Of a stretch of 64,000 bases of DNA, positions 33,101 to 62,931 are shown piece after piece. The position numbers and the translations under genes are program-made. Location of the stretch: positions 992,860-1,056,859 of the forward strand of contig OZ316893.1 in NCBI GenBank assembly GCA_973895155.1, written 5' to 3'. The stretch is from Marsupella aquatica (lineage: Eukaryota > Plantae > Marchantiophyta). Position 1 is the stretch's first letter, and every line of letters starts with the position of its first letter. A model generated the notes under the pieces. The model worked only from the letters and a program-made list of their open reading frames with translations, made no database searches and was not told where the DNA came from.

Positions 33101-33885
33101 ACACCATCACCACGTTCTGCACATGCTCCAATCACAACATTCCATGTAATGACATTTCGATTGGTCAACTTTTCAAAAACTTTCCTTGCCTCGGTGATGC
33201 ACCCACATTTAGAGTACATCAGTACGAGAGCAGTCCCTACACGCACGTCCGATTCAAATCCGACCTGTCGAATATGCTCATGAATTTCTTTTCCGCATGC
33301 TAGAGCTAATGGGCTGGCACATCCTTTTAGGATGCTCAGATACGTGATCTCATTCGGCTGCACACCTTCTTGGCGCATTAGATTGAAAAGTTCGAGTGCA
33401 CATTCAGCATGATCACTGCTAGCGTATCCTGCAATCATGCTGGTCCAAGTAATAACACTCTTCTTCTCAATTTGATCAAAAACTCTACGTGCATCCGATA
33501 ATCCTCCGCATTTGATATACACATTCAACAGCGTGCTTACCACATATGGATTATTATCAATTCCACTCTCGATGATGCAACCATGAATTTGCTTGGCTGC
33601 TGAAAGATCTTTCTGATGCAAGAGCATTTGCAGAACTTTAACATAGGTGTACGAGTCTATAGCAATGCCTCGTTGTAGACGATCTTTCAAATCAGCAAGT
33701 ATTTCACTCGTGGTACCAGGAGCATGCATATGCCTACTGCCGTTCCGTTCTGCGGTGACTTGAGACCAATCTCTCGTGCAATGATCAACATCAGGTTGAA
33801 CTCTGCATTGAGTAAGCAAATTCGCCCTTGCCTTAACCCGTGCTGCAGTTGACCATCCATCCACCCAAAGTGCTATACTTGTCAT
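30109..33885 (-). CDS. PLS-class PPR-DYW protein (copy 3, 1258 aa)
   Basis: Intact intronless ORF. Seven ALEWVK-containing 101-aa units, KEPGISWIE, HSEKLA/CSDCH and terminal DYW. Confidence 0.95.
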   Translation of the reverse strand: MTSIALWVDGWSTAARVKARANLLTQCRVQPDVDHCTRDWSQVTAERNGSRHMHAPGTTSEILADLKDRLQRGIAIDSYTYVKVLQMLLHQKDLSAAKQIHGCIIESGIDNNPYVVSTLLNVYIKCGGLSDARRVFDQIEKKSVITWTSMIAGYASSDHAECALELFNLMRQEGVQPNEITYLSILKGCASPLALACGKEIHEHIRQVGFESDVRVGTALVLMYSKCGCITEARKVFEKLTNRNVITWNVVIGACAERGDGVEAYGLFVQMRREGFKPDAITYLSILNASASAGALEWVKKVHGHASKAGLESNLRVGNALVHMYAKSGSLDDARLVFDRMEKRDRVTWNVMIGGLAQHGSGHEAYRMFLEMRRQGFEPNEITYVSILNASASTGALEWVKEVHGHASKAGLESDLRVGSALVHMYTKSGSIDDARLVFNQLEKRDVVTWNTMIGGLAQHGCGHEAYRVFLQMRREGFKPDTFTYASILNASASAGALEWVKEVHGHASKAGLESDLHVGIALVHMYAKSGSIDDARLVFDRLEKRDVVIWNTMIGGLAQHGCGHEAYRVFLQMRREGFEPDAFTYVSILNASASAGALEWVKEVHGHASKAGWDSDLRVGIALVHMYAKSGSIDDARLVFDRMEKRDVITWNVMIGGLAQHGRGHEAYRMFVEMRRQGLEPNEITYVSILNASASMGALEWVKEVHGHASKAGLESDLRVGSSLVHMYTKSGSIDDARLVFDRLEKRDVVTWNTMIGGLAQHGCGHEAYRTFLEMRREGFEPDAYTYASILNASASEGALEWVKEVHGHASEAGLESDLRVGIALVHMYAKSGSIDDARLVFDRMEKRDVVTWNVMIGGLAQHGLGHEAYRLFLQMRREGFEPNAVTYASILNAPGSAGALEWVKEVHGHASRAGLESDLHVGNALVHMYAKSGSIDDAQQVFDRLGKRDVITWNTMIGGLAQHGYGREALELFRQMNVNHVKPIETSFIAVLSACSHGGLVDDGRRIFSAMTQDYGIERTVVHYNLMVDILGRAGHLEEAKQFISKMPIEPNDVTWTALLGACRTYGNVELGELAANELFKLEPGKASTYVLLSNIYAAAGNWEKVSSVRTMMQERGVRKEPGISWIEVDNTVHQFVVGDTSHPEAEAIYTELNKLSEKLKAEGYIPDTQLVLHDISEEDKELALCSHSEKLAIVYGLMHLPWGRPICISKNLRVCSDCHSATKYISKVTGREIIARDANRFHHFKDGVCSCGDYW

Positions 33886-35480
33886 CTTATACTCAGGTGC
33901 TCTGCGCTTCCTCTGTCAACCACACTGCCCAGGGTCAGACAGGGAAAGCCTGACTGATAAAAGAAAAAAGTCCAGGAGATTCCACGAGGTGCAATGAATT
34001 TGTACTTATTTCTCTAGGACTATATTTCACAATGATCTTTTTACAACGAATTGTTCTAAATTGATGACAGACCGGTTACTCTCTCGAGTCCTACGGCTAG
34101 CTTGCATGCTTACCTCCGTCCAAAGATGTGTTTTCTTGTCTCCCTGGCTCCGCTGTGATCTTTGGTACAGAAAACTTGCAAAAGTTATATGACGCCTTTT
34201 CAATTGAGAGTAACGGCTGTCTGTCAAGAATGCGATGATCTGAGAATAGACTTACTGAAATAATTGTCAAAGGCATATCCAGGTAGCTCAAGTATCAATA
34301 AGCTCGTTGATACTCCGGTATTTCAATGTAATTATAGGAAGGACAGAGTCAAGAGCCTATCGAATTGGCACTAAAAACCTTCATCAAGCAGTCACTGTTA
34401 TCCTTTGGTTCTGTATAGGATAGACTCTTAGGGCACCGTGACAGACGTTTATTTGTAAGTTGCCTACACTGTCCTTTCTATGCTATACACAAACCAACTC
34501 TCAGGTGTTTGACAAGAGACTACACCTCACAAATAAAGCCTAGTCAGCATTTGTAGATTGTCTCTATAGCATCCATTGTGATTAGGACATGAATGTGAAC
34601 GCGCCGCCCCCCGCACCCTGCCCCCCCCCCCCCCCCTCCCCCTCCCCCTCCCCGTGGTTCCTTGGAGATGAGAAAAGAATCAAACTTGAAGTTCAAGTCA
34701 AGCTTCATCACATAAGCCTCATAGCTGGAACAAGGGTTTTTGTTTACAAATAGGTAATCACAAGGTTGAATTGCTCTTCAGTCTCAATTACCTGAAAGCC
34801 TTGTACAATGGCTGATGCCAATACCAACCAAACCGGAAGATGAAGGATGAACTCTGCAAATCAAACGTCATTGTTGAGAATGTCTTCAAGCTCGTTTGGT
34901 CACATCATAATCCAACAAAATGGCATGCATACAAAATTAATCATACCTGGGTGTGGAGTTTTGCCTAAAGCGGTCCATATCCAAAATTTCCATCCAGTAA
35001 GCTTCGGTCCCGTTCGAGAGCTTAATAGTACAGTTGTGAGAAATACGATCTTACCTGTTTGACAAACGTTCAAATCAGTCTTAGTAGTGCAATCCTTGGA
35101 GAGTCCTCAAATCTCAAGTCTCATATTTCATCCCCCTTGGACTAAGGAAACAATATTCACTAGGCGAAGGCTCTGTTGGGAAAGCCTTACCCGGGCGAGG
35201 AATCTCAGCTCAACGCAACATTTGGAGGTACCCCTAGAAGCATAGCGGTAGCAGTATCGTCTCCAGGATCAAGTCCTCCGTCATTACGAATTAAGAATTG
35301 CTGTACTCTTCTAAGAATTATCACAGCTTTGGCATCCTGAGAGGAAAAAGTATGAGAATTTCAAATCCCAAAGCAACCACCACCATACCTGCACATTGTC
35401 ATTTGAAAAAGTTTGGCGCAAGTGCTCTTGTTTATCGCCCTCCACGAAAGAACCCTTTCCAACCGACTTGTCCTATATGC
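33886..35480 (-). repeat. Upstream region of copy 3, inverted paralog of 21530-23164
   Basis: For example, 35361-35465 is the diverged reverse complement of 21541-21648, and 34110-34225 matches 22826-22945 and 15180-15295. Confidence 0.85.
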
Positions 35481-37840: not shown

Positions 37841-40462
37841 CAGTCACAATAGTTAAACCTAACACCTATCAATCTCTACTCACTTGAACTATCACAAAGT
37901 CATGCCTCTCTGGGCCAGACACAAGTTTAATTAGTGATTCCTCTAGCTTTCCCCAACTCTTTAAAAAAAACCTCACCTATTTGGTTCAGTTGGGAGAAAA
38001 TGAAAAACTTTTTGTACACGGATAAGGTTGATTTGGGCTTCAACTTAGTCCCCCCATATATAATTATTAAAGGCAGAATTAATGGAGATTAATTAATTGC
38101 TACAAGGAATTTTCTTCATTTTACAAATTTGCAAGTCTCTAGTGGGACCTGTAAATATTCAAATAACATATTGAAAAATAAAATGAGGATTAAATCCATG
38201 TATTAGAAAATCAGGGTTCATTGGAAGAAATTGATAAACTTAAAATCTTACCAGTAATAAATAACCGACAGAAGGTAGAGTCGAGGTCTAGGATTCTAAA
38301 GTAAAGGTCCTAGACTCGGACTCTAGGGGCTTGCCACAACTTATGTGGATTCAACCAAAGACTGGAATGATGTTATGTATATATGATAAAATCATATCAT
38401 GCATGATTTGTCATCTGTATTAACATTCAAAGAATTGGCATCCAGGCTTGTAATTAAAAAACTTTATTATATACACAGTACTACCTAGAGCAGATTTATT
38501 AACACAACAATCTATAGCAAGTAATTCAATGACTTAGAGTGCCCATTGGTTATGTAAGTTTGATGTTATTTAACAAGTTAGAGCAAAATTGCATATTGAA
38601 ATAAGTTTGACTAATATGAAGAGGAGAGGAAAGAAAGAGTAGATTATTGATATATGATAGTAGCTACGTACTGTAGTCCAACACAACATTCAGACCCTTG
38701 GTACTCCTATGTACATACAGTTCATGTAACATTTTGCCTTGTCTCAAACACAAATAGTCATGTTTGGTTCTTTGTAGATCTAACAAACTGTTCTTGTTTG
38801 TGACCAGTAGCGGGACCAGTAGTGCTGATGTGACAACACGTGCTTCCATAGATTTTGAAAGGTCTGGAACTTTCCATCGGGTCCGTAAATAAGACAATAT
38901 AGCAAGAAGGGGTCCAGTCCTGCCACATGATCAATCTGGAAAATCCTTCAATAAGCAAAAAAATTCCAAAAATGCACAAACAAAATTCTGACAGTTGATC
39001 GAGGTTGTTTTCTAAAGTGGAGCCAGTTACTCTAAGGTGGGAGTAGTATGAGAGCAGGAGAGAAGTTGCTAAAAGACTTTTCTTACTATAAGCCTGTCTA
39101 AAAGACACAGCCCAGTGCCCTACTACACTTGCATTGCACTGAAGATATCAAATTGAGGCAAGGAAATACGAGTGCGATATATAGATTTTGAAATGCAGGT
39201 AGGAAAAGGAAATGTAAGTCAACAAAACCCTAAACAAAAGTTCTCCTTCCATGTTGTAGCACAATTTTTCTTTTATCTTCTTGTTCCCCTCCCTGCGCCC
39301 TCCCTTTCTCTCCTTTTGCTCTAGCTGGCTCCCTCCCACCTCCACTTTCTCCACTTTCTAGCCCTCCCCCCCCCAACCTGGCCTTTTCTTCCCTCCAACA
39401 TGATTTGAAGAATTAGTTCGTGGACCCCTTGGCTAATAAAATCAGGGGGAAGAGTTGATCTGAGCCGTCTCCATTTCTTATCTCCGGAAATCTCGTCCGT
39501 CCATCATAATGGCCAATCTATGGCTCAAAAGAAAGATCTCAAATAGATCTATGGATGGTTCTGTCAATTTTGCAAATGGGTTAATATTTTTCAAATGAAA
39601 AATTAAACAAATCCAAGCCTTCCTAGCCGTCAATTTTGTTGATTTTACGATCTTTGCCGTCCATTTTGTAATGCCTCTAGGAATCTTATTCATCCATGTT
39701 AGAAGGCAATCTAGGGTGCAATTAAAAGAAAGATCTCAATGAGATCTACGACTGGGTATTTTTTGTTTTGAGAATGAGTGAATAGTTTTGAGTATAAAAT
39801 TCGATGAACTTTCAAGATTCCAACCATTCCTCCTCCCCGATCCTGGGTTTCTATGTGCTCTTCCCAGCATTAATGGCCGTACAATACGAGAGGTCCTCAC
39901 ATAACGGGAGTTTCGGTTTAACAAGGAAGTTATAAAGTTAGTTATTAGTCATTATTTATTATATGAAAAATACTTTTTATAAATCTTTGAATTTAAGTTT
40001 TAAAATTATCACAGTATTCATTAAAACTGGAAATTTAAAAGTCCAGATTGTGATCCTCAAATTTACATTCTTGTCTCTAAAAAGTCCATTAATTTTTCTC
40101 CAAATAAACAATTTTTCAAGACTAAATATACACTCTTTTTGGTTTAAAATTACACTTTTGCACTCCAAATTTGATTTTAATCAATTAATCATAATACAGA
40201 AATTATTAATATTAATTGTATTTGAAATTAAATAGATAACTGACAAACATGTATCATTTGGTCAAAAACTCATGATTAAATTCAAAGTGAGATTAATCAT
40301 CTCATTTATCATAACATATATTCAAGGTTGGCTAGCCATAATGTCGATCCTACTCCAATGGTCAAGCTAGTGTAAAGTCCAAAGTAGTTCTATGACCTGT
40401 GAAATAGAAAAATGATTGCATGACTCCAATCTTGTGTCCTACAATGTACAGAAACATAATGA

Positions 40463-43400
40463 TTAATCATCTAAAATTTCAAATTCTATGCCTCCATGAA
40501 TATGTCTACATGACTGATTTGAACAAGTGAGTCGCTCTCCATTTGGGTCATATAGTCTGTCACGAGTGCAAGTGTCTTTGGGATAACGGTTTTTAAACTT
40601 AGAGGTGAGATCCCTAGTCTTTAGAACTTCCCAGACAAATCGGCGAGGATTTTCTCTGAAGGGACCTGCATAAGACTCGCCCAAACAGTTGTTGACCACA
40701 TCTTTCATATCATCTTCGGTCAGGTTCTCAAATGTAGGGTAGGATTGTACCATATCCCTCACTTCCCAACATATCTCATCTCCAGTGACATCCAAGATGG
40801 TATACTCAATCTTGGAACGCCAAATCTTACTTCCCCACTTATGGGAAAGTAAATCATAGATTGCAGCATTACTTTCACGGTCATCATTTATATTAACAAA
40901 TGACCAAAGTGGATTGTTGACAGATATATATTGTCGGATGTCATAAGCCTTCCACAATTTTCTAAGGAATGGCCAAAGTATCTCTGGTAGAAAAGTGTCA
41001 CTCTCGGCAATGTGTGAGAAGGGAGTTGGGAACAAACCACTATACTGTGGATTTGCAAAAGCCTTCACTGGAGAGTCATCAATAAGTAGAGTGTTTGTAT
41101 CATCATACTTGTCTCCAAAACGACTCCACACCACACGCAAATCCTTCAACATAATATTTGCTTTCCCATCTGCTACGTCCGGTCTTTTTATGCCAGTATC
41201 AAAAGCATCTTCTTGTGTGAAAACAAATTTAAATTGCCTCCGCTCCTCTTCTTTGAAAATCAAATTCATCATTTCATTAGTTCTTGGCCTCCCCGCACAA
41301 GTCCACAATGCGACATCAAAACCTTTGAAAGCCACCTCCAAAAATTGGTGCAACCTTGGCCTTTCCACGTACATGAAATTGAATCCACCCCGTCTCCCCC
41401 AATGCACACCCCGCACAGTTGTTGTAGATCTTAACGGTCCCGAGCTTTTTGTTTTGACGCAATCCCAACAAATTTTGTTCAGGTCCAAAATCAAGAGTTT
41501 TCTTCTTATATCAGAGTGCAATTTAGGAGTGAAATCTGCAAAGATCCAAATGAATCAAAATTATATCTAAAAGATATAAAAGAAGAACTTAGGGTCGAAC
41601 CTGGATCGACCCGACCTAATGGGGAAAACAAACATATCATTTTTGAATGTCAAAGCATTTTGATATATCAATGTAGAAGTACCTTGCTCAAATGCTTTGT
41701 CTTGGACCAGGGTACCGCTTGCTGAAGGTAGACCAATAATATCCTTCGATGGAAGAGATGCTATGACAAAACTCTGGTCTGTCCATATATGATTTCCAAA
41801 CATAATATTTTAGATTATTGTGAAAAATAGAAGAACGAAACCATAATATTAACCTCCACTACTAAATGACCCATATTCATCTATCATGTTATCACCTAGA
41901 TCACTTTGGATATCAGAATTGACGCCAACAGGAAGCTGCTCCACCAACGTTGGCGGCGCAAACACTGGACTCAATCTCAATTTGTCTATTATGTAATCAG
42001 GTTTGACCATTAACTTAGGCGCATCCTCCAACGTTTCTTTCAATCCAACTTTAGGTCCATTTCTCCAAATGAAATGAGTTGCATGACGGACTGTCTTCAT
42101 ATATCCTGTTCTACCTATCTCAGATCCAGACTTTTGAGACAAGCGTAATATTATGGGGCTTCCGCTTGACATCCTTGTGAAGACCAATTTATTCCCTGAC
42201 GAACAAAATTGAGGAGACTCGGAACAAGTTGAAGCACCTGCCTCTTCAGCTTCAACATTTGTTGTCTCTCCAAGTGGAAGGTTGTCTTCAATCGCTTCTG
42301 CAATACCAACTTGTAGGTCCGTGGTGGGTGTAGTGGCCCCAATATTCTGCCAACCTGCATCCAATGTGCACGATACCTGCGGTCTCTCGGGATGCAATTT
42401 TGATACTTCAGGGTTGAGAGGATTTGATGGAGGGTCGCTCTCAGGGCGACCCGACATCACTATGTCGAGTTGAGGTAGCCCTTCAACACCGTAGGTAGTA
42501 ATGCCAACCATTTCTGTTGCTCGAGCATCCCAATTTCCGCCAAAATCCTCCTCTACCATAGGACTTGAACCTCCATCATCATGCTGCAACTCACCATCCT
42601 CAAGGTCAACTCGCTGAGGGCCCGGTTGGGGGTTGTCCATAGGCCCGCAAAGAACACTTAGATGAGCTCTCCTAGGACCATGTACTCCCATCCGCTCTTT
42701 CATAAGGGAGGGAATCCTGTTGCACAAAACCCTTGCATATGCTTGGGTGAAATGGTGTTCTTGCAAAGTGTCTGAATAGACAAAACAATCTCGGTATGCC
42801 AACAAGGCCACCTTCAAAACCTGCCCTCCTGAAAAAAAATCGAGGACAGTCTCCCCCTCACCGGAAAAACATTCAATAATATTTTTGAGCATGTGTCGGG
42901 GCTTGGCATGCGGATTGACAAATCTTCCTCGACTTCCGACCATCTCAAACATTGGAGCTTGCCGCAATAAATCTGCCATATCAAATGCGGGAGACTGCTC
43001 CTCTGTCTCATTCTCTTTTCCCTTGCTTTTCTCTTGCTTGTCAGCCTTCACTTCAATATTGAAATCACAGTCAACATCGGGGTGAAAACTAAATTTTGAA
43101 TTGAACTCTGGCTTAAACAATTGATTCCAATCAAAATTGTCTTCACCTGTAATTCCAGCAAAAATGACCTGCTCAATCGCTCCTGTAAAAATTAAGCCCT
43201 GCGGATTTGGGCGATCTTCCCGATCATAACTCCCGTATTCAACATGGATGGCCAAATGCTTTTCATGTCCTAATTTCCTTAGGGCACTTAAGATGTTGGC
43301 TGGAAGTGGCCCTGGATGAGTAGTCATGACAACACAATGGTTGTATTCCTTGGCAACTCCACAATATATTGGAGCAATACAAAAATTTCCGAATCTGTCC

Positions 43401-46400
43401 ATTCATGTTGTCGTGCCCTACTAAAATCAACAATTGCAAGTGGACACATTGGCGTCGCCTCTTCCAATAACTCTGGCGTGGTTGTCTTCATTAGATTCTC
43501 ACTGAAGAACGTCAAGAAAGGCTCTGTTCATGTGCGCCCAACTCCACCAAATTGTTTGTAGTACAACCCGTCTAATCTCACCATTAGACTTTGAGGGAAA
43601 GCCTCTTTCACAATGTTCTTCCTTAATAAACTGCTAAGGTAGACCTCCCCAGCTGCTCTTCGCAATTTTGTCAGCTCAAGTTGAGATCCCAAGGCCGGCA
43701 TGATGTTGACCACCGAAGCCCACGATGTCCCCCCGGGAAAATTCTCCTTGTGCTTCTCAACAAAGTACTCAACAATGACTTGCTTCAATTTAGTCATTAC
43801 CTTGATGGTATGAGCCATATCTGGCATTGACACTAGATCCATCTTGTTGGAGGCATCTTTCTTGAGAAGTGCTTTCTTCTCATAAACCGCGGTCAATATA
43901 TCAATGATATCCTTAGAACTGATCTCCCCTTCAAAACATCTAAAAAGAGTTGGCGTGACCAGCTTTAGTGGCCGCGGCCCACCATACTCTCCTGCCCCGC
44001 CAGGGAGCTTCCCTGCCAACCAATCCCAACAAACAGTTTGCCATAAATGGAAAAGCTTATCCTCAGCAAAGAGCAACCAAAAAATGGCTTTCAAGCTCGA
44101 CTTTCCCATTGTTATCTTTGCGAGGGCAAACCAATCCTGCATTTACATTCATCCACCAAAAAACATGTTAGATGTTTAAACTTAGAAACTTCAACTTCTC
44201 TGCCTCGCCCCTAGAGCGAGGCGAAGAAAATGACAAAGCCATATGAAAATGGTTGGGGCAATCATTGTATTCATCATTCAATTTCATTTGGGTCACTCTA
44301 AGAGCGAGGCAAAATTAAACTACAGTTCCAACTAATGAAAATGTTTACCTGGTATTTCTGGTTGTCTGTACTTTGGTTTGTTCCAATTTCTGGACGCGGT
44401 GGTTTCCCACATTCATCAAATTGCCTTCTCGCATGAACAACTGTCTCTAGAAAACAAGACTTAAACTGCATGGTCTGATTTACTGCATTTGAAAGGCTCG
44501 AGTGCTCGACCAAAATTGCCCTTGGAGTGAGGTCTGATAAGATCCTCGCTTTCCGATATTGGAGTTTGCTAGCAAGATCAGTTAGCTTGGCATCCTTGTC
44601 TGCCCACCCTTGAATCCATTGTGCAGCCTTTGCGGAATGTTGCCCACTGATTGCAAGAAATTGTATCTCTTGCTTCTTAACACCAAACAAAAATTGCTTC
44701 CGATCGCGTGCGGTATTGTCAAAATGTAACAACTGCTTAGTGCGCTCTAGAAATGGAATCAAATCTGCAACATGTGGTTCCTGGCCAGGGTTTTTCATCA
44801 TTGATTTTGCTATCTCTAAGGCATGAGCCTGGTTGAACATCCGATACACAAAAACTGCAGTAGGCGGAATAATACTTTTAACCGGGATTTCAAAAACCTC
44901 CCTGATTCCAAAAGTGTAGTATTGCTCGATGTTCCGCAAAGCTTTCTGCCCCTCCAATACATCTCGTTCCTCTGGTGCATCTGTTGGGCATGTATCATCC
45001 TCCGGATCCAAGACCAACCTTGCTTTTGACGCTGACACGGGCTTTGATTTCCCAATCTTGGCCTTCTTCTTGGGCTTCTTGTCGGAGTCCTTATCTTTCT
45101 TCTTCAACGCCGCCTTTTTTCCTCTAGTACTTCCTTCACTCCTTGGCTCTCTTTGTTTTCTCTTCTTCTGTGTTTCAGCCGACGTCATTTCTTTGGCCTT
45201 CATCTTCATCTTCCCCTTACCTCGATGCTTTTCTTCCTTCTTCTTTTGAGTTGAAATCCACTTCATGCAAGCATCTTCGTCAAACTCATCAGAGAAAATA
45301 AAACTCTTATCAATTGCTTGCTCATATGAAAAGCGTGCTGTTTCAATCATCCTCTGGACAACCCATGTGTTAGGAAGATCTATAAGGTCCGGATGATCAT
45401 GCATGTACCGCTTCACAGAGAGGAATCCAAAGACAACATCAACCCCACTCAATTTGAATCTTCCATGCCTCTCAAGAACATCCTCTGCAGTGAACCCATC
45501 TGGAAGAAATCCCATTGAACAAATACTAGCCTCCGAGCGTGCTATCCACTCCACGTTGATAATTGACGAGTACATCTTGATTGGCAAGTAAAGTCTCATC
45601 CACTGAGATCTTTCTCTGGATTCAATAATGATTGTAACATTGCGGTTATCACTGCAATTTACAAGGACCACAGGGCCCAACGCAACTATCTTCTTGTCGT
45701 TCATTGTCTTAGCAGTGATTGCCTTGATACAAATCATCGACAAGTCATTCTCCATGATCCCTACTTCAAGTGCCCACGAAAATCCTGCCTTATCTTGTCC
45801 AGGGAAAATAAAGTCCTTGACATCCTCGGCCATAATATTTAACTCTGGGGATCCAAGTTGTTCTCCTGGAAAAACAAATTGAAACGACAAACATTAAAGC
45901 AAGAGATCTTTTGTGTTGCCTTGCCCCTAGAGCGAGCTGGAGACAAGGTCTGCATCAACAAACATGTGGGTTGGGTCGCTCCTGGAGCGACCCTAGGAAA
46001 TCTTAAATCAAGGTCCAACCAACAACAAATTTGGGTCGCTCCTGGAGCGACCCTAGGAAAACTTAAATCAAGGTCCAACCGACAAATAAGTTGGGTCGCT
46101 CCAAGAGCGACCCTAGGAAAACTTAAATCAAGGTCCAACCAACAACAAAGTTGGGTCGCTCCTGGAGCGACCCTAGGAAAACTTAAATCAACGTCCAACC
46201 AACAACAAAGTTGGGTCGCTCCTGGAGCGACCCTAGGAAAACTTAAATCAACGTCCAACCAACAACAAAGTTGGGTCGCTCCTGGAGCGACCCTAGGAAA
46301 ACTTAAATCAACATCCAACCAATAACAACGACAAATCTTAGGCAAGATAGGGTCGCTCTAAGAGCGACCCTTCAAAGACTAACTTGCATCAATTGTTGAA

Positions 46401-46579
46401 TCATACTTACGTGGAACTGTGATATGAAATCCTCTTGAGGCGGCCAAAGCGGATTCCACCGACATCTTTAGTAAAGTGTCTTGAGAATCATACTCAAAGA
46501 TTTTACTAGAATCAAAGTTCAGGGACTGCCCAGAACTAGAAGTGCTAGTAGAATCATCAGAACTAGAGGAAGTAGCCAT
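40463..46579 (-). pseudogene. 5-exon ~1,720-codon fusion gene: ParB-like domain, amino-methyltransferase-like domain, FCP1/SCP(NIF) HAD phosphatase-like domain, Cys/His tail
   Basis: Exons 46579-46384, 45865-44349, 44136-41854, 41778-41683, 41535-40463 join by GT-AG introns in matching phases (1,0,1,1). Motifs: IPVKSI..RMFNQAHALEIAKSM..FLAISGQHSAKA (ParB-like); NPHAKPRHMLKNIIECFSGEGETVLDFFSGG (MTase motif X/I); KLLILDLN..RPRLHQFL..VALWT..NTLLIDDSPVKA (NIF). One TGA at 43528-43530 and one frameshift near 43350. Confidence 0.78.
45971..46371. repeat. 6 x 60-bp tandem array, each unit with palindrome GGGTCGCTCC-T-GGAGCGACCC, plus a 7th palindrome at 46349-46371
   Basis: Units start at 45971, 46031, 46091, 46151, 46211 and 46271. 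The third has the variant CGCTCCAAGAGCG. The array lies entirely within predicted intron 45866-46383. Confidence 0.95.
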
Positions 46580-47626
46580 TGAAAAATGCCTCACAAACGT
46601 TTAGATGACACGTGGCAGCCTAGTATACAAGAACGCCTATATAGCTAGACCACACCACGGAGCGAGGCTACAGAGCAAGGAAAAAAATCTACTATGAGCA
46701 AGGCAAAATCAACAGAGCGAGGCAAGAAAATCTACTATGAGCGAGGCAAGAGGGAGGAGGGAAACCAGGGCAGCCGGGCAAGAAGACAATGAAGGAGGAG
46801 ATGGATGCAAGAAGACAATGAGGCAAATGAGGTAATGTCTTTGCCTTTTGCCTTCCTATACCCTCACTGCCACGGCCGATCCTACGCCACGGCCGATCGT
46901 ACGCGACCTTACGCAACCCAGCCACTTGCTCCCTTCCACGCGCCTGTGAACTCGCAACCCTCATAATGACCTAGCTGTACGGGTATCCATAGATTTTGAA
47001 AAATGATGCACGGTCGTACGGGTGTCCACAGAATGCCGATCAGAGTAATCAGACTTTCGGCCTCTCGATGTTGTGAACCCCTTCAGGACAAACTTGGCTA
47101 AAGCTTGCTCACAAATGGTATAAAGCTCTATAGTTCCAATCATTTCTCTCTTTTGTATGGCGCGTGCGTTTCTGGTCATTGCTCACTCTCGGTCTCGCCC
47201 TTCGGCCCTTGTCTATCTTGCTTCTGTTCGGTGACTGATTCGACTGACTTGGACATTTATGGTTACAAGAGTTCGTGCAAGGAAAGTCCTGTTTCAAGTA
47301 CATATTGCATTAGTTTTGGTGTCCTTGGTTGGCGACACGTCTTCTATAGTCCTTAAGAGAGGTATTACTTCATCTACCATTCTCTTAATTTCTTCTCTAT
47401 GATATCCACCAAATATTTGGCCCTAGCTTTATCTTAATATATGGACCTAACTAAGCCCTAGATAATGTAGGGTTCCTAACGACACACTCGTCTACCCACA
47501 CGTCTACACACTTCAATGGTCTAATTCAGCTTAATCATTCCCCTGATTTATTCATTTCCATATTTTCTCTTTTCCTTCACAATTCTTGCTTCTCCAGGAT
47601 TGTGCTCGTCTTTTCTTGCTCTCCCG

Positions 47627-48056
47627 TTGCCTCGCTCCAAGAGCGTCATGCCCTTGCCTCGCTCCAAGAGCGTCACACACTTACCTTTCATCAGGAGCAT
47701 CCTGCCCTTTCTTTTCTCCAAGGGCATCCGCTCTCCATTTCCTCGCCATCAGAGCGTCCCACAACCGCCTCGCCCCTAGAGCGACCCTCCATCGCCTAGC
47801 CCCTAGAGTGGCCCTCATTCACCTTGCCCCTAGAGTGTCTCTCCATCGCCTCGCCCCTAGAGCGACCCTCATTCACCTTGCCCCTAGAGCGTCCCTCCAT
47901 CGCCTCGCCTCTAGAGCGACCCTCCATCTCCTCGCCCCTAGAGCGACCCTCCATCGCCTGCCCCTAGAGCGACCCTCCATCGCCTCGCCCCTAGAGCGTC
48001 CCTCAATCGCCTCGCCCCTAGAGCGTCGCAACCTTGCCTCGCTCCAAGAGCGTCCT
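47627..48056. repeat. ~27-bp tandem array (cgcctcgcccctagagcgaccctccat and variants)
   Basis: About 11 consecutive units at 47766-48030, plus CGCTCCAAGAGCG copies at ~47632, ~47660 and ~48040. Located upstream of the transposase ATG. Confidence 0.92.
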
Positions 48057-48234
48057 TGACCTTAGAATCCTGTTGTGTAAAGCCAATACACATAAACTCC
48101 CAAATATTTTTTTCCTTTAAATAGAATTCAAATGTTTAGATCTAATATTGTAATATCTAGAGTAGTGCTTATCAGTATGCACATCAGCTGAACAATTTTT
48201 AAATGTTTTTGGATGCAGAGATTCTTTCGCTACC

Positions 48235-51200
48235 ATGAGTAAATTTATGCGAGGGGATGAAGTTTCATTGATAATTGATGGTTTTGAAGTGGCAATTGGG
48301 ACCATCCAAAAGGTTGATCCCAAAGACACTATACACAATATTTGTCTTGGGAAAAATTGAATTGGGGTCCTTATCGAGAGGTGTCTTGAAACATCTTGTC
48401 CACTACCATTTCCATCCAAAACATCATCGAGCCTAGGTGATGCAGTTGACTCGTGTGTGATCTGGGATTCTTCCTTGGCATATTTGAGGTCTTCAACATT
48501 GCCGAAAAGAACCGCTGTGGATGGTGTTCCTACTCCAGTGGACGGGGATGAAGGATGTTTCGAAATGGATGTTGGTGGTAAAGGAGGCAACCTTGCTGAA
48601 GGAGAGGAGGTTGAGATGTTCATTTTAGATGAACTTGTATCAAAAGGAGTTGTCTTCAATACCAATCCAATGGACACTTGTCATAGTGAACGACTCGGTG
48701 TTGGTCGTGTCAGTATACAAATATCAGAGGTTGTTCAGGGAAATAGAAAACTACCATATCCGCATCTTGGAGCTGACACAGTGCAAGAGGCAATGCAGAC
48801 TTGGGTAATGTGGGATGTTGCTGATGTTTCAAGAAAAGGCTCTATTCGAGGTTCTGGCATGTTTGTTGGTGCAAACCCGGGTGCAAACCTGTTTAAGGAT
48901 CTTCCATTGAAAGATTTTACAATGCGTTCCAACTGGATGGCAGAGGAAGTTGACTTGTATGATGTTTCTCGTTGTCGTAAGGTTGCGACAGGAGTTATCA
49001 CAGTTCCTTTTGAAGCAGGTGCTGTTGATGATGAACTTCTTGGTCCAGAGCATGTGGGTGTAGCTGTTGTGAATATCAACGATCCCGCATTATTTCCAAA
49101 TATCCGTGCTGGTACTCCAGGTTTGGTGAGGTGGGAAATCAAATCTTTGTTGTTGATTTCATCTCAAATATTTCTCGGGGATATCCTTGAGAAAGGTTCA
49201 CATGTGTGGATAGAATCGGGTCGAAATGAGAGCGACCCGGATTTGGATGGTGATGGGAAACCTCCAAAAAGACCTTATAATTTCATTAGAAGGACCAAAG
49301 TGGATCTGGAGGAGAAAAAAAATAAAATTTGCAATCAAGGGCGCTTTTGAAAATCACCGAGGAGTCCATTGATTCCATCCAAAGAGAAGGTTGTTGCAGG
49401 TTAAAGTGTTGCTTGAACATGCCAAGAGAGGACTTGGAGGCAATGAGGAGGGAATTTCATGGAATGTCAAGTGACAACAAAACAAGTCATATCTTCAATC
49501 TTTTTGGGTGTAGAGAAGACCAAGTCAAGAGAAAAGGATTTTTTGTTCTAAAGGGACGTGTGGTTTGTAAGGATGCGTTCATAAAAATGCATGGGTTTAG
49601 TACGGCAAAGTATTATGATTACAAAAATCAGTACGAAGCTGGGTGCACAATTGGTTTCCATGGAAATCAAGGGCAACATAAGACACGATCAAGCACCTTG
49701 CATGCTCGTGCATTGTTGGAGTCCATTTTAATCCAAAATGGAGAACCAATGCCACATCTTCCCTATGGTGGGTCCAACGGCACCGATACTGTCAAATATC
49801 GACTCCCATCATGTTTCACTAAGAAGGAGATTTTTCAAGAGGTATTTGCAAAGATGGAATTGGACGGCTATGCTAAGGTTACTGAAGTTACCATGTACAA
49901 CATCTGGAAAAATTCTTTTGATAATTTTGACTTTCACAAGGGCAGTGCATTTGCCAAGTGCACATTTTGCACTGAGTTCAAAGATCAATTGATGCGGGAG
50001 AAGAGAAAAAAAGAGCGTGCAGAGATTGAAGAGAAAAGAGCACGACATCTTCGTGAACAAATGTCAAGGAGATATGTTTACTATGCTCATAGGGTTCTTG
50101 CAAAGAAGGATCCTCAAAACTATCTTTGCATTATTCATGATAAGATGGACCAAGCCAAGACTTGGATCCCCAGATTGGTCCCCACTCCAAAATCTCTCTC
50201 TGGTAGTGGTCAACCTCTGCCCATTGCCCTTACTGGGATGTTAACCCATGGAAGGGATCCAGGAGTGTATGCACACTTTAGTTTGACTGGCCTTTGGCCT
50301 GGAGATGCAGACTTCACTGTGACATCTTTGGCCAAATGCCTTCAAGATTTGGAGGATTACACTGGAGACAAAACGGGAGACATGCTTGAAGCTTTCAATT
50401 GGAACGCAACTAGGCCAATATTTCAGTCTCTTTTGGACTTTGAAGCATTTCAAGCGGGTTACTTGGAACCCAAAAATGTTTCAATTCTCAAGTTTCAAGG
50501 CCTTGATGACGGTCAGGAGAGCCAAAAAACCAGCACAACAGATGCTGGTTCTAGAGTTGATCCTGAGACTACGAGCTCTTTCAAGCCCTTACCAAGGCAC
50601 CTAACACTGCAGATGGACAATTCAGGAAAAGATAATAAAAATCAATATGTGATGGCATTTTGCAGCGAGCTTGTTAGCAGGGGGTGTTTGAAACTGTGCA
50701 AATGTCATTCCTCATAGTTGGCCACACCCATGAGGATGTGGATGCACTATTTCTCAAGTATCCAAACAGGTCAGGTACAAAGAGGTTGCTACCCTCCTTG
50801 CGTTGATGGCTGAGGTTTGGGAGTGTGAAAGCATCCATCCTGTACGTACCACGATTGATTCAGGAGGTTGCATCTTACAAGCACTATTTGAAGGCTTTCC
50901 AAGTGAAAGAGATTGAAGGTCACTCAAAACCAATGGCATTTCTATTCTCCATGAGGGATAATGTGCCAGTGTATCAATATAAAGCACATGTCAAACAACC
51001 TTGGCTTCCAGCAACAGGGAGGTCAATTTGGAGAACTGATCTCATCACAAACACGCTCATTTTACCGGAGGGCCAACCATTTGCAAAACCTATATCGGGG
51101 GAGGTACAAAAGAAAGTCGAGGAAATCATCCCATTCCTTAATCGTTACATTGATTTCTTGAGGAAAAGTTGCAAGGATGAGACCTCTACAGCATACCGCG

Positions 51201-52018
51201 AGAGATTTCCTTTGGTGAAATATTGGGAGAGGCTTGTTATGGCACTCTCTGAGGCACTTACAATAGAAGGGGAGGGAGAAAGACAATTGTCATTGACAAC
51301 TGATTTCTGGCCAAAGACTAACCATGGCACAGGTTACAAGGTGATTTTGGGGACCTCTCAACCTTCAAGTGAACCTACTCAAAATTCAGAGATGATGGAC
51401 CTTCAAAATGAGTACATGGAAGAGATGGAAGGTCAAGCTGCACCCTTCGTTGGTGCACAAGAAGAGCGAGAACTTGCACGTTGGATTTCCCTACAAGATA
51501 TTCAAGAGGGTCACTTTGTGTTTTTACGTCCAGAGGATGAATGGGAGCAAAAAAATGGCAAAGGGCGTTTCTGGTTAGTTCGAGCTTTGGGTGGTGTGGA
51601 TCCAAACCATGAGGTTTCTTCACTAGATTTGCAATTTAGTGAAGGGTCTTCTTCAAGGTTTTCTAAGAGCATTCACCTAAGTAGCATTCCTAAGTGGTAT
51701 GCTCCTATGTTCCAAGTGCAATGGTGGAGGCCTAAACATGGTAAGCATGATGCAAAGGATGATGTTCGATACGAACGTTGCTTTCAGACCACTAAGACTT
51801 GGGAGCTAGATCCTGGGTTTAACACTATCACTCAAAGTTGGCAATTTGCAAATTCTGCAATGTATGGATTTAAGTCAGGTGCCAAAGAACAAAATATTAT
51901 GGATAGAGGTTTGACAATTCCCAAGAATGTTTTGAAAACTCTCAAAACTTACATGGAAGGTATTGATGAGAGTGATAGAGTGGTCACAAGTGTCCACTAT
52001 GTAATGACTTGTAGGTAG
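48235..52018 (+). pseudogene. DDE transposase (Sola/DUF7869-like) with three N-terminal Tnp1/En-Spm-like domains; disrupted
   Basis: ATG 48235 is in frame with ORF 48457-49350, with a TGA at 48358. Cys clusters CCRLKCC, VCKDAF and KCTFC. Catalytic-type motifs IIHDKMDQ, LQMDNSGKDNKN and (frameshifted, ~50700-50750) SFLIVGHTHEDVDALF. Frameshifts at ~49330, ~50680, ~50752 and ~50845. Confidence 0.8.
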
Positions 52019-52697
52019 GAGGGTCAAGTTAATTTCCATGCATTTGTCTAAAGTAAGTGAGAGAACAAGGCTTGCAATCAAATACTCTATGATCTTTCTT
52101 AGTTATTGAATGGACTTTTTCATAAAAATTGTTATTTTTGTCTTAGTACATATATTTCTAGAAAATGATGGCAGTTCTAAGTTACTTGGATGTCATCCTA
52201 GTTTGAATATAAGATATTTAACTTGTCTAGCATTTCATTGTTGCTTAGATAATGATCCTATCCAAGCTAGATGCTTTGAGTATAGATGCTATCCAAGCTT
52301 ATGTGTTATTACACACGTTCTATCTATTTTCAACCAAATGAACACTTTTTATCACCCAAATGTTTTTTAATATTATCCAAATTAATATTTTCTTTGCCCA
52401 AATGTCTATTTTTTTGCCCCAAATTTATAATTCATGATGCTTAAATTTTCATTTTTCATCCTTCAAATTTACAATTCTTATGCCTAAAAGTGTGTTTTTA
52501 AATGCCCAAATTTCCAAATCTTCTTTATAATTCCACTTTTAATGAATATAGTGATAATTGGAAATGTAACTAAAACGGTTACATATAGTGATAGTTTTAA
52601 CCGTCTTGCTCTTTGCATTTCCAATGTTTTTACTTTTATTTTTATGGCACAGCGTCCCAAAGTTTACACCCAAATTGACACAAACACGAATATCAAT

Positions 52698-53028
52698 CTA
52701 TTCATTAAAAGTGAATTATTATTCAATTTGTGAACATTTGGGCAATAGAAAGTGTACATTTGGCTTTCAAAAAGTAAACATTTGGGCAAGAAATAAAGGT
52801 GATGGCCATCAGACATACCACCATGTTCATCTTTTATAAATGAACTAGGATGAGACTCCTTCTAGTAAAGATCATTTTTTCTCTCTCAAGTTTACAATTG
52901 ACTATTTAGGTGTAGAGTATTGTACTATAATATACCTTTTGGGGTTAAAAAGTGTACATTTAGAGACCAAAAAGTGTACATTTCAAGGCCTAAAAGTGAA
53001 CAAAATAAAATACACTTTTAATGAATAG
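52698..53028. mobile_element. MITE with 16-bp TIR CTATTCATTAAAAGTG (copy 1)
   Basis: Perfect inverted ends. A second homologous copy lies at 62932-63240. Confidence 0.8.
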
Positions 53029-53313
53029 GGTGATGAATGGAAACTATAAGTTTGATTCACAAAACCGCCGAGTCTTGTTTGTTGCGGTTGTTGTTGACGT
53101 GGCACGTTGTGGTGCCAGGAATTTTGGAAGGGACCTCTAGTGGGGTCCGTAAAAAAAATTGGAGGAAAAAGCAGAATTAATAACCCAAAGGAACAAGAGA
53201 ATTCCACTTTAGAAAATAAATAGCAAACTTAGGCCAAATAGTGCCCCCCCAACAAAAAAAAAGTCTCTAACTTACACGATGTACTTCTTATGTAGGGGCT
53301 CCAAGTATTGGTC

Positions 53314-53651
53314 TGTTAGATATTGCTCTAGTCTTGTGACTCATCATGAGCTAACCACAGTTATTCTAACTCGGGTTAGGACTTAGCTAATATTAGTGGT
53401 AGTGTTGTTGTGCATATAGCCAGGGCTGATGCTAGACCCTAGGTGGAACTTAGGCTCATTGTTACAGAGCTAGTTGAGAGCTTGTGTTGTGGATACTTGG
53501 TATGGCCGGTCGGCCTAGAGTGCAGTAAAGCTCTTGTGTGTTCCCGTGGACGTAGCCTCATGTGGAGGTGAATCACGTATCTCTCTGTGTCGACTCTTGT
53601 GCGTTGGATGGTTCATGGGCTTGCAGTTACGAATGTCGTCTATGCTCAACA
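53314..53651 (+). mobile_element. Copia solo LTR with 5-bp TSD TGGTC
   Basis: TGTT...AACA ends, TGGTC at 53309-53313 and 53652-53656, and a 3' half highly similar to LTR 2699-3043. Confidence 0.92.
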
Positions 53652-54257
53652 TGGTCATGGTAAAATGAAACTCAGCCCAATCCTAGATTACAACGAGGAT
53701 TACAATCTTGAAAAGCCAGCAAGTCATTTAGTGCATAATTATTGTCTTCAAAAGACAAATATATGAACCAAAAAGTCAGTGCCTGAATTTCAATTAAAGT
53801 TGAAGTGAATCGGTTGCACATGACTTTTTTGTATGAGCCAGTTGCATGTGACTTTTTGCATTTTACACTGTTAATTGTAATTAGTGTTATATAAGAATTA
53901 GCGTTAGTACCAAATTAGTGTTGCTAAAACTAATTTTGTTATATATAATTAAGTGATCTTGAGCCCAGAGTAACCTTAATTCTTCTTGGTTTTCAAAACA
54001 GGTTTTTTTTTCACTTTTGTTTGTGGGGGGGGAGGGTTGGGGGAGAGGCAGCCCAAGAGAAAGGGGGAGAGGAGGTCGCATTGTGTGAATGATTGCGCTT
54101 ACCTCGGTTGCCATCACCTATTAATCTTGCGTTCTCCATCTGTCATCATTTTTGCAACAAAATCTTTTTGACACGTATATCTTTTATGCAACATCTTATG
54201 TGCAAGGCATGAGTATATATTGAACACAACCACAACATGGTTGAGATCACACATAAC

Positions 54258-57461: not shown

Positions 57462-58141
57462 TTCTCGATGAACAGACTGAAGTGTCAGCAATCGCTTCTG
57501 AGAATCTCAATGCAGTCCAGAGATTTGGCACTTCTAAGCTCTCTAGAAACGAAAATCGCGGATTCTACAATGGAGGTGATGGATCAGATACTTTGTGGAC
57601 GAGGAGGCTAATGATGGACTTGAAATTTGCCAAAAACCTTCAGCTGAGTAGAATGAAGCCCGGAGATAACTTTGGGTATACCCAAAGTAAACTTGAGTTG
57701 TGAACTATGGTCTAATCAAACTCTAGGTGAAAAAACTTTATAAGCATGGGTTAGCAGGTGAGTTTAGGCAAACTTTAAGTAAGTGCTGTAAGTTGAATAT
57801 TATTGACTGATTAAACAAACATCAGGCAAAATTGCCTTTCTATAATGCATACTCTGACTAACTGCACGAAGTGCATCCACTTCTTCCATTTTCGTGGAGT
57901 TTGCACTTTTCGTCTGTGCAAAAGGCCAAAAACTAAACAAGAACTATATAAGTGCAACCCTCCATAAGTTGCCACCACTTATTGGTAAGCGCACCATTCC
58001 ATCAACTATTTACACTTATTATTACTAACTAAGTGGCATTAAAAATTGCACATGGGGTAGGAGATCATGTTTACGGCGAATATATACAGTTTAGGGTGGG
58101 TTCCACTAGAATGTTCACTGTTAGCCGGGGCATTACACATG

Positions 58142-62730: not shown

Positions 62731-62931
62731 AGTGAACTTATTTTCATGCGGATGAGATTCCACCTCAACTCGTCATTTAGAGTAAATCCAGCCCGAATTT
62801 TCCCATTAGATGCTTACGATCTGCCAGATGAAGCAACGGAGGGTAGTCGGCCATGATGCGATAGAAGGATTGGCGTTTGTCCTTCAAGTCCAGCCTACTT
62901 TCTCTTGGTCAAATTAGGTCTTGCGGTCAAC

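Follow-up and report, generated by a model that had tools for sequence, protein, structure and literature searches.

A candidate accessory gene with predicted ParB/Srx and amino-methylase folds, followed by a NIF phosphatase-like reading frame, in a young TIR transposon of a liverwort

Results

The window, by which we mean the whole 64,000-nucleotide stretch of Marsupella aquatica contig OZ316893.1 that was analysed, contains a 12,548-bp DNA transposon with terminal inverted repeats (TIRs) at positions 40008-52555, and two divergent genes lie within it. The left TIR (ATCACAGTATTCATTAAAACTGG, 40008-40030, plus strand) and the right TIR (ATCACTATATTCATTAAAAGTGG read inward, 52533-52555, minus strand) were read from the sequence, and when the right end is reverse-complemented, 20 of its 23 positions agree with the left TIR. 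The element is flanked by two copies of a 4-bp target site duplication, AATT (40004-40007 and 52556-52559). Contigs of all four public runs (X1 to X4) contain the empty site, in which 40003 is joined straight to 52556; the 12,552 positions skipped there correspond to the element plus one copy of the duplication, the four letters of which fit on either side. One contig of the family in run X4 terminates precisely at 52555. In the case of run X1, contig depth was about 290-314 within the element versus about 10-22 in the single-copy flanks, and the majority contigs showed 5 to 12 letter differences from the window over stretches of 1.4-2.1 kb. A MITE-like non-autonomous relative of 343 bp (52692-53034) has the same termini as the large element and its own 4-bp duplication, GAAT; its empty-site joint (52687 to 53035) was also present in all four runs.

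The element is therefore a young, multi-copy TIR DNA transposon of the cut-and-paste type, with TIRs, a duplication, empty sites, several copies and a transposase-like gene. The preliminary description of this DNA had placed the gene studied here inside a transposon, and the TIRs, the 4-bp duplication and the empty-site contigs bear this out. An endogenous giant-virus or phage fragment was also considered and was rejected, since the TIRs, the duplication and the empty sites favour a transposon. The 4-bp duplication would presumably fit the Sola superfamily. The superfamily of the transposase is not settled by the accessible parts of PMC4455052 and PMC9587614, and we found no mention of DUF7869, the domain of the transposase-like gene, in the literature.

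The transposase-like gene (48361-52018, plus strand) was seen as three ORF pieces (48361-49350, 49326-50717 and 50807-52018). The middle piece, 49326-50717, matched DUF7869 in Pfam (E 1.3e-15), and the nearest Atlas clusters of the gene bear DUF7869 (score 0.94). Twelve 27-bp repeats with palindrome half-sites (TAGAGCGACC) lie between the two divergent genes at 47733-48055. Within the first proposed intron of the other gene there are six 60-bp repeats (45970-46328), and every one of them contains a 21-bp palindrome, GGGTCGCTCnnnGAGCGACCC; this palindrome occurs for a seventh time at 46351-46369. The window contains 8 matches to the palindrome versus 0.01 expected, all of them within 42433-46369.

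The other gene is on the minus strand, where it appears as ORF pieces at 46379-46600, 44298-45893, 43528-44142, 43324-43527, 41849-43402 and 40463-41554. The preliminary description had joined these pieces by four introns (46383-45866, 44348-44137, 41853-41779 and 41682-41536) with the split codons A|GA, CAG|GAT, G|AC and G|AT. Each of these introns starts with GT and ends with AG, the codons are split as described, and the exon sum is 5,165 nt as it had been counted. The estimate of about 1,720 codons was also reproduced: with N at the frameshift and X at the stop, the frame is open over 1,721 residues and is interrupted by a single stop. The serine-rich start, the lysine-rich tract, the AISGQHS motif and the C...C...C...H tail are all legible in the translation.

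Proposed exon 1 (46384-46579), which is serine-rich and starts at ATG 46579, was placed from its GT donor and phase. Similarity to relatives begins near the second ATG, 45833, and one weak alignment, that of the relative P0086, bridges proposed intron 1 (45866-46383; GT-AG and phase). ATG 45833, like ATG 41803 described below, allows an alternative start. Exon 2 (44349-45865) encodes a conserved N-terminal domain (about 45833-45263), the lysine-rich tract and a ParB/Srx-fold domain. Intron 2 (44137-44348) is the only one of the four for which more than GT-AG and phase can be cited. Across its junction, the sequence NQKYQ|DWFALAKITM aligned without a gap to a gene model of Calypogeia fissa, P0016 (NSKFQDWQVLAKITM), and the junction was bridged in 6 of the 105 proteins compared; P0006 terminates at the same KYQ as exon 2. 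The claimed continuity from the ParB-like part to the methylase-like part, including intron 2, is therefore supported by liverwort gene models. Exon 3 (41854-44136) encodes a helical region, the methylase-like fold (DFSR at 43428-43417, LDFFSGGQ at 42844-42821), an acidic, disordered linker and a beta-rich conserved end, IDEYGSF. These results show that the N-terminal domain, the lysine-rich tract, the ParB/Srx fold, the helical region and the methylase fold belong to one frame.

The proposed structure downstream of this point consists of intron 3 (41779-41853, 75 nt; GT-AG and phase), which includes both the TAA (41851-41849) that closes the methylase-like ORF and ATG 41803-41801, a mini-exon of 96 nt (41683-41778) that is in frame on both sides, intron 4 (41536-41682, 147 nt; GT-AG) and the last exon (40463-41535), which encodes the NIF/HAD phosphatase-like domain, a C-terminal region and the Cys/His tail (40570-40496). 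The ORF of the mini-exon extends to 41809 and takes in ATG 41803. The AG at 41536 is the sole one ahead of the start of the NIF domain, the scanned stretch containing three AGs. No alignment among the 105 proteins compared bridged introns 3 or 4. The contigs of runs X1 to X4 cover introns and exons alike without splice joints and are uninformative on splicing. One joint in X4, 41546 to 41899, was set aside as unreliable (depth 9.9, a 22-letter side, not GT-AG).

The copy in the window carries two lesions that other copies of the element do not have. The preliminary description had postulated one lost base, and contigs of all four runs have one base more behind 43333 (at all of the depth in X1 and X4, and at most of it in X2 and X3). 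It had also corrected one TGA (43528-43530); three runs read G for A at 43530, which changes the codon to CGA, X4 having no cover at this place. Alignments to relatives bridge both the TGA and the frameshift. The stop and the lost base are thus private to the window copy and knock that copy out. As the element is young, intact copies should exist. Apart from the frameshift of the window itself, indels among the copies were seen at five places, each of which lies either within one of the proposed introns or ahead of the ATG. They include 1-base and 11-base indels in proposed intron 1; in proposed intron 4, some copies lack one base at 41621 and have four extra bases at 41647.

For exon 2, at least 94 relatives were found at E<=1e-3, on account of which chance ORFs were rejected, and these relatives retain the invariant residues down to about 25% identity. 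Twenty of them were looked up, and the eight named to species comprised seven from Riccia sorocarpa and one from Calypogeia fissa; P0001 also comes from C. fissa. All of the species-named relatives are from liverworts and are annotated as 'hypothetical' or 'unnamed', and no Pfam domain was found above threshold in the relatives scanned. Two of the Riccia models, P0068 and P0079, have the ParB-like region and the methylase motif (LDFFSGG or DLFSGG) in one protein. A pattern scan with the methylase-region alignment gave one metagenome contig, L001 (1,802 nt), which stops before the C-terminus, and nothing in viral contigs or prokaryotic genomes. A profile of the N-terminal domain had no match among PDB sequences. 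The gene thus represents a real, undescribed family of transposon accessory genes of bryophytes.

The ParB/Srx-fold domain lies within exon 2 at about 45023-44349 on the minus strand, with SGQHS at 44648-44634. The ParB-like assignment of the preliminary description held for the predicted structure but found no counterpart in Pfam, in which exon 2 matched no family even at E<=10 and ParB_N (PF02195) matched none of 36 relatives. The structure predicted for 45023-44349 (pLDDT 91.4) was aligned by VIA-align to Myxococcus xanthus ParB (7bnk_B, residues 37-132) over 94 residues with Z 10.2 and an rmsd of 2.3; 20 chains were obtained at Z>=8, all of them ParB, Noc, KorB or PadC rows. Foldseek placed ParB, Noc and Srx in the top rows (best E 9.5e-4), and the model also matched phage ParB-like proteins in BFVD. 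We take the ParB/Srx fold to be present on the strength of this model. Searches of PDB sequences with exon 2 (phmmer) and with a 49-row profile of the ParB region gave chance matches to lysine-rich sequences only, and in ESM Atlas the ParB region scored 0.90 with recognition below the reliability mark, a result that serves as a lead only.

GERR is the arginine-patch box of CTP-binding ParB, and GxHR is typical of Srx and ParB-like nucleases. The consensus sequences used for comparison here and below (GERR, DPPY and DxDxT) were aligned to the residues of the window by position and not by residue-level structural alignment. The motif of the family is (S)GxHS; among 49 sequences, H129 never varies, and the conservation of G127 and of S130 is 90% or higher. 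In the window, GQHS stands where the GERR box is expected. As judged from the sequence, (S)GxHS appears nearer to the GxHR of Srx and ParB-like nucleases, but the last arginine is replaced by serine.

In the case of the methylase-like region, the amino-methylase assignment stood as a beta-class fold but stayed below threshold in Pfam. N6_N4_Mtase (PF01555) scored 25.0 bits in the window, under the gathering cut-off of 26.7, and 15.1-24.7 bits, also under the cut-off, in seven of seven relatives; the matches span only about 93-165 to 193-215 of the 221 profile positions. The fold was modelled for a relative, P0002, that shares 41-52% identity with the two pieces of the window (mean pLDDT 53.6, roughly 60-89 in the core, from a 10-row alignment). 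With this model, Foldseek gave 50 matches at E<=1e-3, led by CcrM (6pbd, E 1.9e-7) and then TTHA0409, M.MboIIA, M.RsrI and M.PvuII. A family profile matched residues 219-269 of M.RsrI (E 1.9e-7), where the motif X/I region FVNPfAKP...tvLDFFSGGqv is aligned with HPTQKP...TVLDFFAGSGVT and the last glycine of FxGxG is replaced by glutamine. The motif order is that of the beta class, and motif X and motif I (the SAM-binding region) are present. We take a beta-class amino-methylase fold to be present on the strength of the model and of the profile match. PHROGs and NCBIfam gave weak methylase and HAD matches only.

The catalytic motif IV of N6/N4 amino-methylases is (D/N/S)PP(Y/F/W). PP[YFW] did not follow the aspartate of the first strand in any of seven sequences. 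The end of this strand (residues E26-30 of P0002, LAIVD) reads DFGR, DFTR, DLAR, DLIA, DFAR, DFSR (window) and DFAR (L001), the DPPY position having been assigned by position in the model and not by residue-level superposition.

The NIF assignment was recovered in full. NIF (PF03031) matched with 58.3 bits versus a cut-off of 21.8 (E 9.8e-16) over profile positions 1-160 of 160; the best solved relative of the domain is UBLCP1 (3shq, E 3.3e-8), and the best NCBIfam model is HAD_IIID1 (E 3.1e-10). DxDx(T/V) is the nucleophile and acid/base motif of NIF phosphatases. The first NIF motif of the window is LILDLNKI (DLNKI at 41485-41471), in which the first aspartate is kept, the second is asparagine and the Thr/Val position is isoleucine; this placement follows from the Pfam match, which starts at residue 19 of the ORF. 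The X1 contig of depth 314 differs from the window at three places, none of them in the DLNKI codons. The NIF/HAD-like ORF follows after 46 nt on the same strand and inside the element, and has no ATG ahead of the domain.

NIF was absent from all 41 distinct relatives scanned by Pfam. Four relatives attain the conserved end IDEYGS without NIF, two of them being annotated liverwort gene models; P0001, P0002 and P0005 end 8-15 residues after it, and P0090 continues without NIF. A word-index search with the product of exon 2 or of the NIF ORF, which is weak evidence, did not turn up any longer, fused relatives, and a pattern scan with the NIF product gave none in metagenome or viral contigs. Of 39 GT-AG pairs that could make the connection to the phosphatase ORF, 12 keep the frame, which is the chance level. 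The odds that the NIF domain is a C-terminal extension joined via the two small introns, as the sequence would permit, are about even. The preliminary description had called the product a three-fold 'polyprotein'. This reading is supported in part only. The three folds were recovered, but nothing indicates cleavage; the product would be a multidomain protein.

Discussion

We propose that this young TIR transposon carries the gene as a second gene with an accessory role and that the gene product acts by binding, likely to the DNA of the element itself, and not by catalysis; we give this reading a probability of roughly 0.5. The product is predicted to bind and not to catalyse because none of the three folds appears to retain its usual catalytic signature. 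GxHS would have replaced the arginine patch of ParB, DF(S/G/T)R the DPPY motif and DLNKI the DxDxT motif. For the same reason, 'methylase' and 'phosphatase' denote folds only in this article, and these two parts may serve as binding modules. The NIF ORF would be expressed from the same transcription unit, as a C-terminal extension or as a product from ATG 41803. The candidate DNA targets are the 21-bp palindromes of intron 1 and the related half-sites in the divergent-promoter region; that the product might bind the palindromes is purely what we infer.

A somewhat less probable arrangement consists of two products, in which the ParB/methylase-like protein would end at the TAA (41849-41851) and a NIF-like protein would start at ATG 41803 and be spliced once (41682-41536), its transcription starting at an internal promoter or its message being an alternative transcript. 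It is consistent with this ATG being in frame with the mini-exon, with the absence of NIF from all 41 scanned relatives, with relatives stopping soon past IDEYGSF and with the in-frame join being at chance level. However, the stop and ATG 41803 are separated by only 46 nt, which leaves no space for a separate terminator and promoter, the NIF ORF lacks its own ATG ahead of the domain, and splicing from donor 41853 preserves the frame both with the mini-exon and without it.

The other readings concern the activity of the protein. It is unlikely that the product marks the DNA of the element or the host as an active amino-methylase (6mA or 4mC), with the ParB part targeting it and an unusual catalytic loop replacing DPPY. 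In favour of this, the beta-class fold is retained as a whole, as is the motif X/I region, a phage 'putative modification methylase' was among the viral matches to the ParB fold, and ParB-linked methylase loci are described in PMC4738411; against this, PP[YFW] is at the expected place in none of the seven family sequences, the last glycine of FxGxG is glutamine, and Pfam and PHROGs match just the C-terminal third of the methylase profiles. It is very improbable that the region is functionless passenger DNA, captured or decayed, whether it stems from fragments of host genes or from horizontal transfer long ago. The stop and the frameshift of the window copy and the three apparently altered catalytic signatures might suggest decay, but other copies are intact at both lesions, ORFs of 363-531 codons remain open, the invariant residues are kept in 94 relatives down to about 25% identity, and indels among the copies avoid the exons. 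A more elaborate form of the binding reading, which we offer as a long shot, is that the transposon has adopted a phage-type ParB-methylase module and fused it to a CTD-phosphatase-like domain. The product would form a self-recognising DNA clamp on the parS-like 21-bp palindromes of the element; its dead methylase and phosphatase pockets would grip DNA as well as chromatin factors or the phosphorylated tail of Pol II, and the element would in this way stay transcribed or be protected from silencing. If true, this would be partition-system logic in a eukaryotic transposon, of which we know no other case.

Mobile elements with DNA-modification or chromatin-directed domains illustrate how transposons counter host silencing or turn it to their use. 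The present family is a ready test case: the termini of the element and its small non-autonomous relatives have been delimited, and the accessory protein would offer three separately testable pockets (NTP, SAM and phosphate) and a candidate DNA site. Models annotated as 'hypothetical protein' in liverwort genomes would also gain annotation as transposon genes.

Comparison with known systems

Proteins that combine ParB with an N6/N4 amino-methylase are known from bacteria and phages, as methylases of ParB-Tls loci (PMC4738411) and as modules of polyvalent proteins (PMC5512222). The transposon gene resembles them in having a ParB/Srx N-domain followed by a beta-class fold with permuted motifs (X/I late). 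Unlike them, it has a ParB part without sequence-level similarity, a helical region of about 270 residues between the two folds, no DPPY, spliceosomal introns, a eukaryotic TIR transposon as its setting and a NIF ORF behind it. Our pattern scans gave no close prokaryotic or viral relative.

Prokaryotic-type methylases on, or acquired through, eukaryotic mobile elements provide a second comparison. The methylase-like domain of DIRS1 is said to be inactive (PMC4738411), DNMTs are reported in retrotransposons (PMC5890265), and N4CMT of bdelloids is reported as a methylase linked to eukaryotic mobile elements (PMC8885841). The structure of N4CMT (8s9o) was among the Foldseek matches of the P0002 model. 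Like the DIRS1 domain, the methylase-like fold of the transposon gene appears to lack catalytic residues. The present case differs in being in a cut-and-paste DNA transposon, in joining a beta-class fold to ParB and in having a bryophyte host, and our literature search found no description of any of these combinations.

The NIF-like ORF shares with UBLCP1, SCP/Dullard and FCP1 a full-length NIF match and the LLIDDSP motif; it differs from them in having DLNKI for DxDx(T/V), in a 150-residue C-terminal region with a Cys/His tail and in being situated in a transposon. Two-gene DNA transposons carry second, accessory genes, such as ORF1 of PIF/Harbinger and TnpA of CACTA elements. The gene described here is likewise a large gene next to a transposase, inside the TIRs and in all full-length copies, whereas its domain content is unrelated to theirs.

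Exon structure and lesions of the accessory gene

The accessory gene at 40463-46579 on the minus strand of the window is real. Between 40463 and 46600, this strand holds open frames of 73, 531, 204, 67, 517, and 363 codons. The preliminary description had joined them through four introns (45866-46383, 44137-44348, 41779-41853, and 41536-41682); all four are bordered by GT...AG, split the codons as claimed, and leave an exon sum of 5,165 nt. Apart from one internal stop, the spliced frame, with N placed at a frameshift and X at a stop codon, remains open over 1,721 residues.

We compared the window with contigs from four public sequencing runs (X1-X4; two studies, two organisms), which covered the introns as well as the exons. 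An extra base behind 43333 was present in all the depth of X1 and X4 and in most of that of X2 and X3, and position 43530 was G, not A (CGA for TGA), in all three runs covering it. The frameshift and the TGA are both private to the window's copy; therefore, the lost base and the TGA that had been proposed as lesions are confirmed, as other copies have neither. Copy-to-copy indels were found at 41621 and 41647 in intron 4, at 45870 and 46281 in intron 1, and at 46638, ahead of the ATG. Because all five places lie outside the exons (the window's own frameshift excluded), they fit the exon map.

Relatives and continuity of the reading frame

HMMER, run in full with exon 2 (the N-terminal domain and the ParB-like region) as query, gave 94 proteins at E ≤ 1e-3, 61 at ≤ 1e-10, and 16 at ≤ 1e-30. 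Twenty relatives were checked: eight carry species names (seven Riccia sorocarpa and one Calypogeia fissa, all 'hypothetical' or 'unnamed'), and the other 12 are from metagenome or run assemblies. The methylase-like ORF has five relatives, the best of which is a further C. fissa protein. Pfam, run on the 36 longer ones of the 94 exon 2 relatives, detected neither ParB_N nor NIF; N6_N4_Mtase matched weakly in one of them, P0068. This Riccia protein (820 aa) and P0079 (648 aa, also Riccia) each unite the ParB-like and helical regions with a ...LDFFSGG or ...DLFSGG motif in a single protein.

The spliced reading of the window was also compared by script with 105 stored proteins, six of which bridge the exon 2/3 junction. 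The C. fissa protein P0016 aligns over 303 residues with 50% identity, ungapped where ...NQKYQ is joined to DWFALAKITM..., and P0006 stops at the identical KYQ, followed by V (= GT). The TGA is bridged by two of the stored proteins and the frameshift by three. The Riccia and C. fissa models together with these bridges bear out the joined reading, from the ParB-like to the methylase-like part, as one gene. A relative on a 1,802-nt metagenome contig (L001) contains the helical region and the methylase-like region in a single frame, with one in-frame stop between ...SKND and RSTFSK....

At the exon 1 junction there is a single weak bridge (P0086, 28% identity), with almost no match before the junction, and the relatives begin to match around the ATG at 45833. 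It is possible that exon 1 encodes protein, that it belongs to the 5' UTR, or that it lies outside the gene.

Two R. sorocarpa relatives, P0072 and P0090, start with MARWKQTAR(R/K).... The N-terminal tail of histone H3 is ARTKQTARK, and this close resemblance suggests possible mimicry of a histone tail by these transposon proteins. No start of this type is present in the window's copy.

Predicted folds

The ParB region gave no match in Pfam at E ≤ 10, nor in PDB searches with phmmer and with a 49-row profile. Positions 45023-44349 of the window were modelled with AlphaFold from the 49-row alignment; the model (pLDDT 91.4) matched ParB, Noc, KorB, PadC, SbnI, and sulfiredoxin (Foldseek best E 9.5e-4). 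VIA-align superposed it on ParB from M. xanthus (CTP-binding N-domain; Z 10.2, rmsd 2.3 Å over 94 residues) and found 20 chains at Z ≥ 8; in a viral structure library, phage ParB-like proteins came out on top (best E 7.8e-5). Thus, the expected ParB/Srx fold was recovered by predicted structure, including the proposed Foldseek check, and not by sequence profiles. The family signature in this region, GxHS (H invariant, G and S at least 90% in the 49-row alignment), differs from the arginine patch of ParB, GERR.

Pfam N6_N4_Mtase scored 25.0 bits in the window, against a cut-off of 26.7, over profile positions 160-205 of 221 only, and all seven relatives behaved likewise. The family profile matched M.RsrI (E 1.9e-7) across the motif X/I region. 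The intact relative P0002 was modelled from a 10-row alignment (mean pLDDT 53.6, core about 60-89), and the model matched CcrM, TTHA0409, M.MboIIA, M.RsrI, M.PvuII, and rotifer N4CMT, with a best E of 1.9e-7 and 50 matches at E ≤ 1e-3. The N6_N4_Mtase assignment therefore stands as a fold, by this model and the M.RsrI profile match, and falls short of the Pfam cut-off for PF01555. Beta-class amino-methylases have (D/N/S)PP(Y/F/W) after the first strand; none of seven family sequences has it there, and they read DF(S/G/T)R, DLAR, DLIA, or DFAR instead. L001, one of the seven, has DFAR where DPPY is expected.

The NIF domain and its possible fusion

The proposed last exon contains a clear member of the NIF family, as had been proposed (Pfam 58.3 bits, full profile), nearest to UBLCP1 and to HAD_IIID1. 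The first motif of NIF/HAD phosphatases is DxDx(T/V), where this domain reads DLNKI. As an X1 contig of depth 314 is identical to the window at these codons, DLNKI is a family trait, not decay of the window's copy.

That the NIF domain is spliced onto the methylase-like ORF as a fusion has about even odds. The NIF ORF lies within the element, 46 nt past the stop codon of the ORF upstream and on its strand; it is open for 356 codons and has the depth of the remaining element. It has no ATG ahead of the domain, the only AG before the domain start in the scanned stretch is that at 41536, and the donor at 41853 is in frame with or without a 96-nt mini-exon. However, 12 of 39 GT-AG pairs give in-frame joins of the two ORFs, and the frame of the mini-exon contains an ATG at 41803. 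Moreover, NIF was found in none of 41 distinct relatives scanned with Pfam, and four relatives extend to a conserved ...IDEYGS end without it. Fused or not, the NIF domain would share a transcription unit with the upstream ORF in this element family, and may have been gained in this lineage only.

The transposon and its surroundings

In all four runs, empty-site contigs join 40003 directly to 52556, skipping 12,552 bases, with four letters that fit both sides; AATT at 40004-40007 is repeated at 52556-52559. Therefore, the element (40008-52555) is 12,548 bp long with a 4-bp target duplication, a length that would fit Sola as a possible superfamily. It starts with ATCACAGTATTCATTAAAACTGG and ends with the near-complement. 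The element is inserted in a far more abundant repeat (39104-40003 and 52556-54076), whose uninterrupted copies are the source of the empty site; the summed X1 contig depth of this repeat reaches about 63,000, against about 10-22 for single-copy DNA. Contigs of the element family have X1 depths of about 286-314, against 10-22 in flanking single-copy contigs, and show 5-12 differences from the window per 1.4-2.1 kb. These values suggest a few tens of young copies, although depth does not give a copy number as such.

Two further elements are small and non-autonomous: one of 343 bp (52692-53034), which has the same termini and its own duplication, GAAT, and whose empty site is seen in contigs of all four runs, and a third near 62927-63240 with degraded ends of the same type.

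The second, divergent gene (48361-52018, plus strand) contains DUF7869 (E 1.3e-15), and the Atlas clusters closest to it (score 0.94) consist of DUF7869 proteins from Streptophyta and Arthropoda. A literature search found no description of DUF7869. At 90% likeness, the transposase-like part (49372-52123) is covered more deeply than the remainder of the element, by a factor of 3-5 in X1 and of more than 10 in X2 and X3; related transposase genes are apparently common to more, or other, families. Most transposase-like copies have an extra base behind 50749.

The window is land-plant DNA. It contains a copia-type RT fragment (228-2125), a chalcone-synthase gene (56157-57506), and, inside 22 kb, three large PPR genes that lack introns and encode E, E+, and DYW deaminase domains (12100-15099, minus; 23129-26338, plus; 30109-33915, minus). 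Such a set of PPR-DYW genes is characteristic of plants whose organellar RNA is heavily edited.

Possible mode of action and comparison with known systems

The accessory protein would be a transposon protein built from a phage- or plasmid-type module, ParB followed by a beta-class methylase, whose catalytic signatures are apparently lost. For a protein of this kind, binding is a more likely role than catalysis. The earlier interpretation is partly supported: it holds for the folds and for the single ParB-to-methylase gene, and enzyme activities of the methylase-like and phosphatase-like parts are doubtful in view of the altered motifs.

The ParB-like and helical part is the evident candidate for DNA binding, and the element offers a putative binding site. 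A 21-bp palindrome, GGGTCGCTCnnnGAGCGACCC, occurs eight times, against 0.01 expected, a number reached in none of 100 shuffles. Seven of the eight lie in intron 1, within its 60-bp repeats or adjacent to them; the number of these repeats varies between copies of the element, as seen at contig joints. One palindrome lies within coding sequence. Half-sites are found in twelve 27-bp repeats separating the two divergent genes. Within the window, palindromes and half-sites (45970-46369, 47733-48055, 42433-42451, and 49216-49238) are confined to the element, with arrays in intron 1 and between the genes.

The consulted sections of Iyer et al. (PMC4738411) contain nothing resembling the bryophyte accessory family, nor did a full-text literature search yield a description of it. 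The same sections describe methylases linked to ParB in phages, fusions of ParB with HTH in chlorophytes and chytrids, and a DIRS1 methylase domain regarded as inactive. The accessory family, for which we found no earlier description, belongs with the mobile elements that bear prokaryotic-type methylases.
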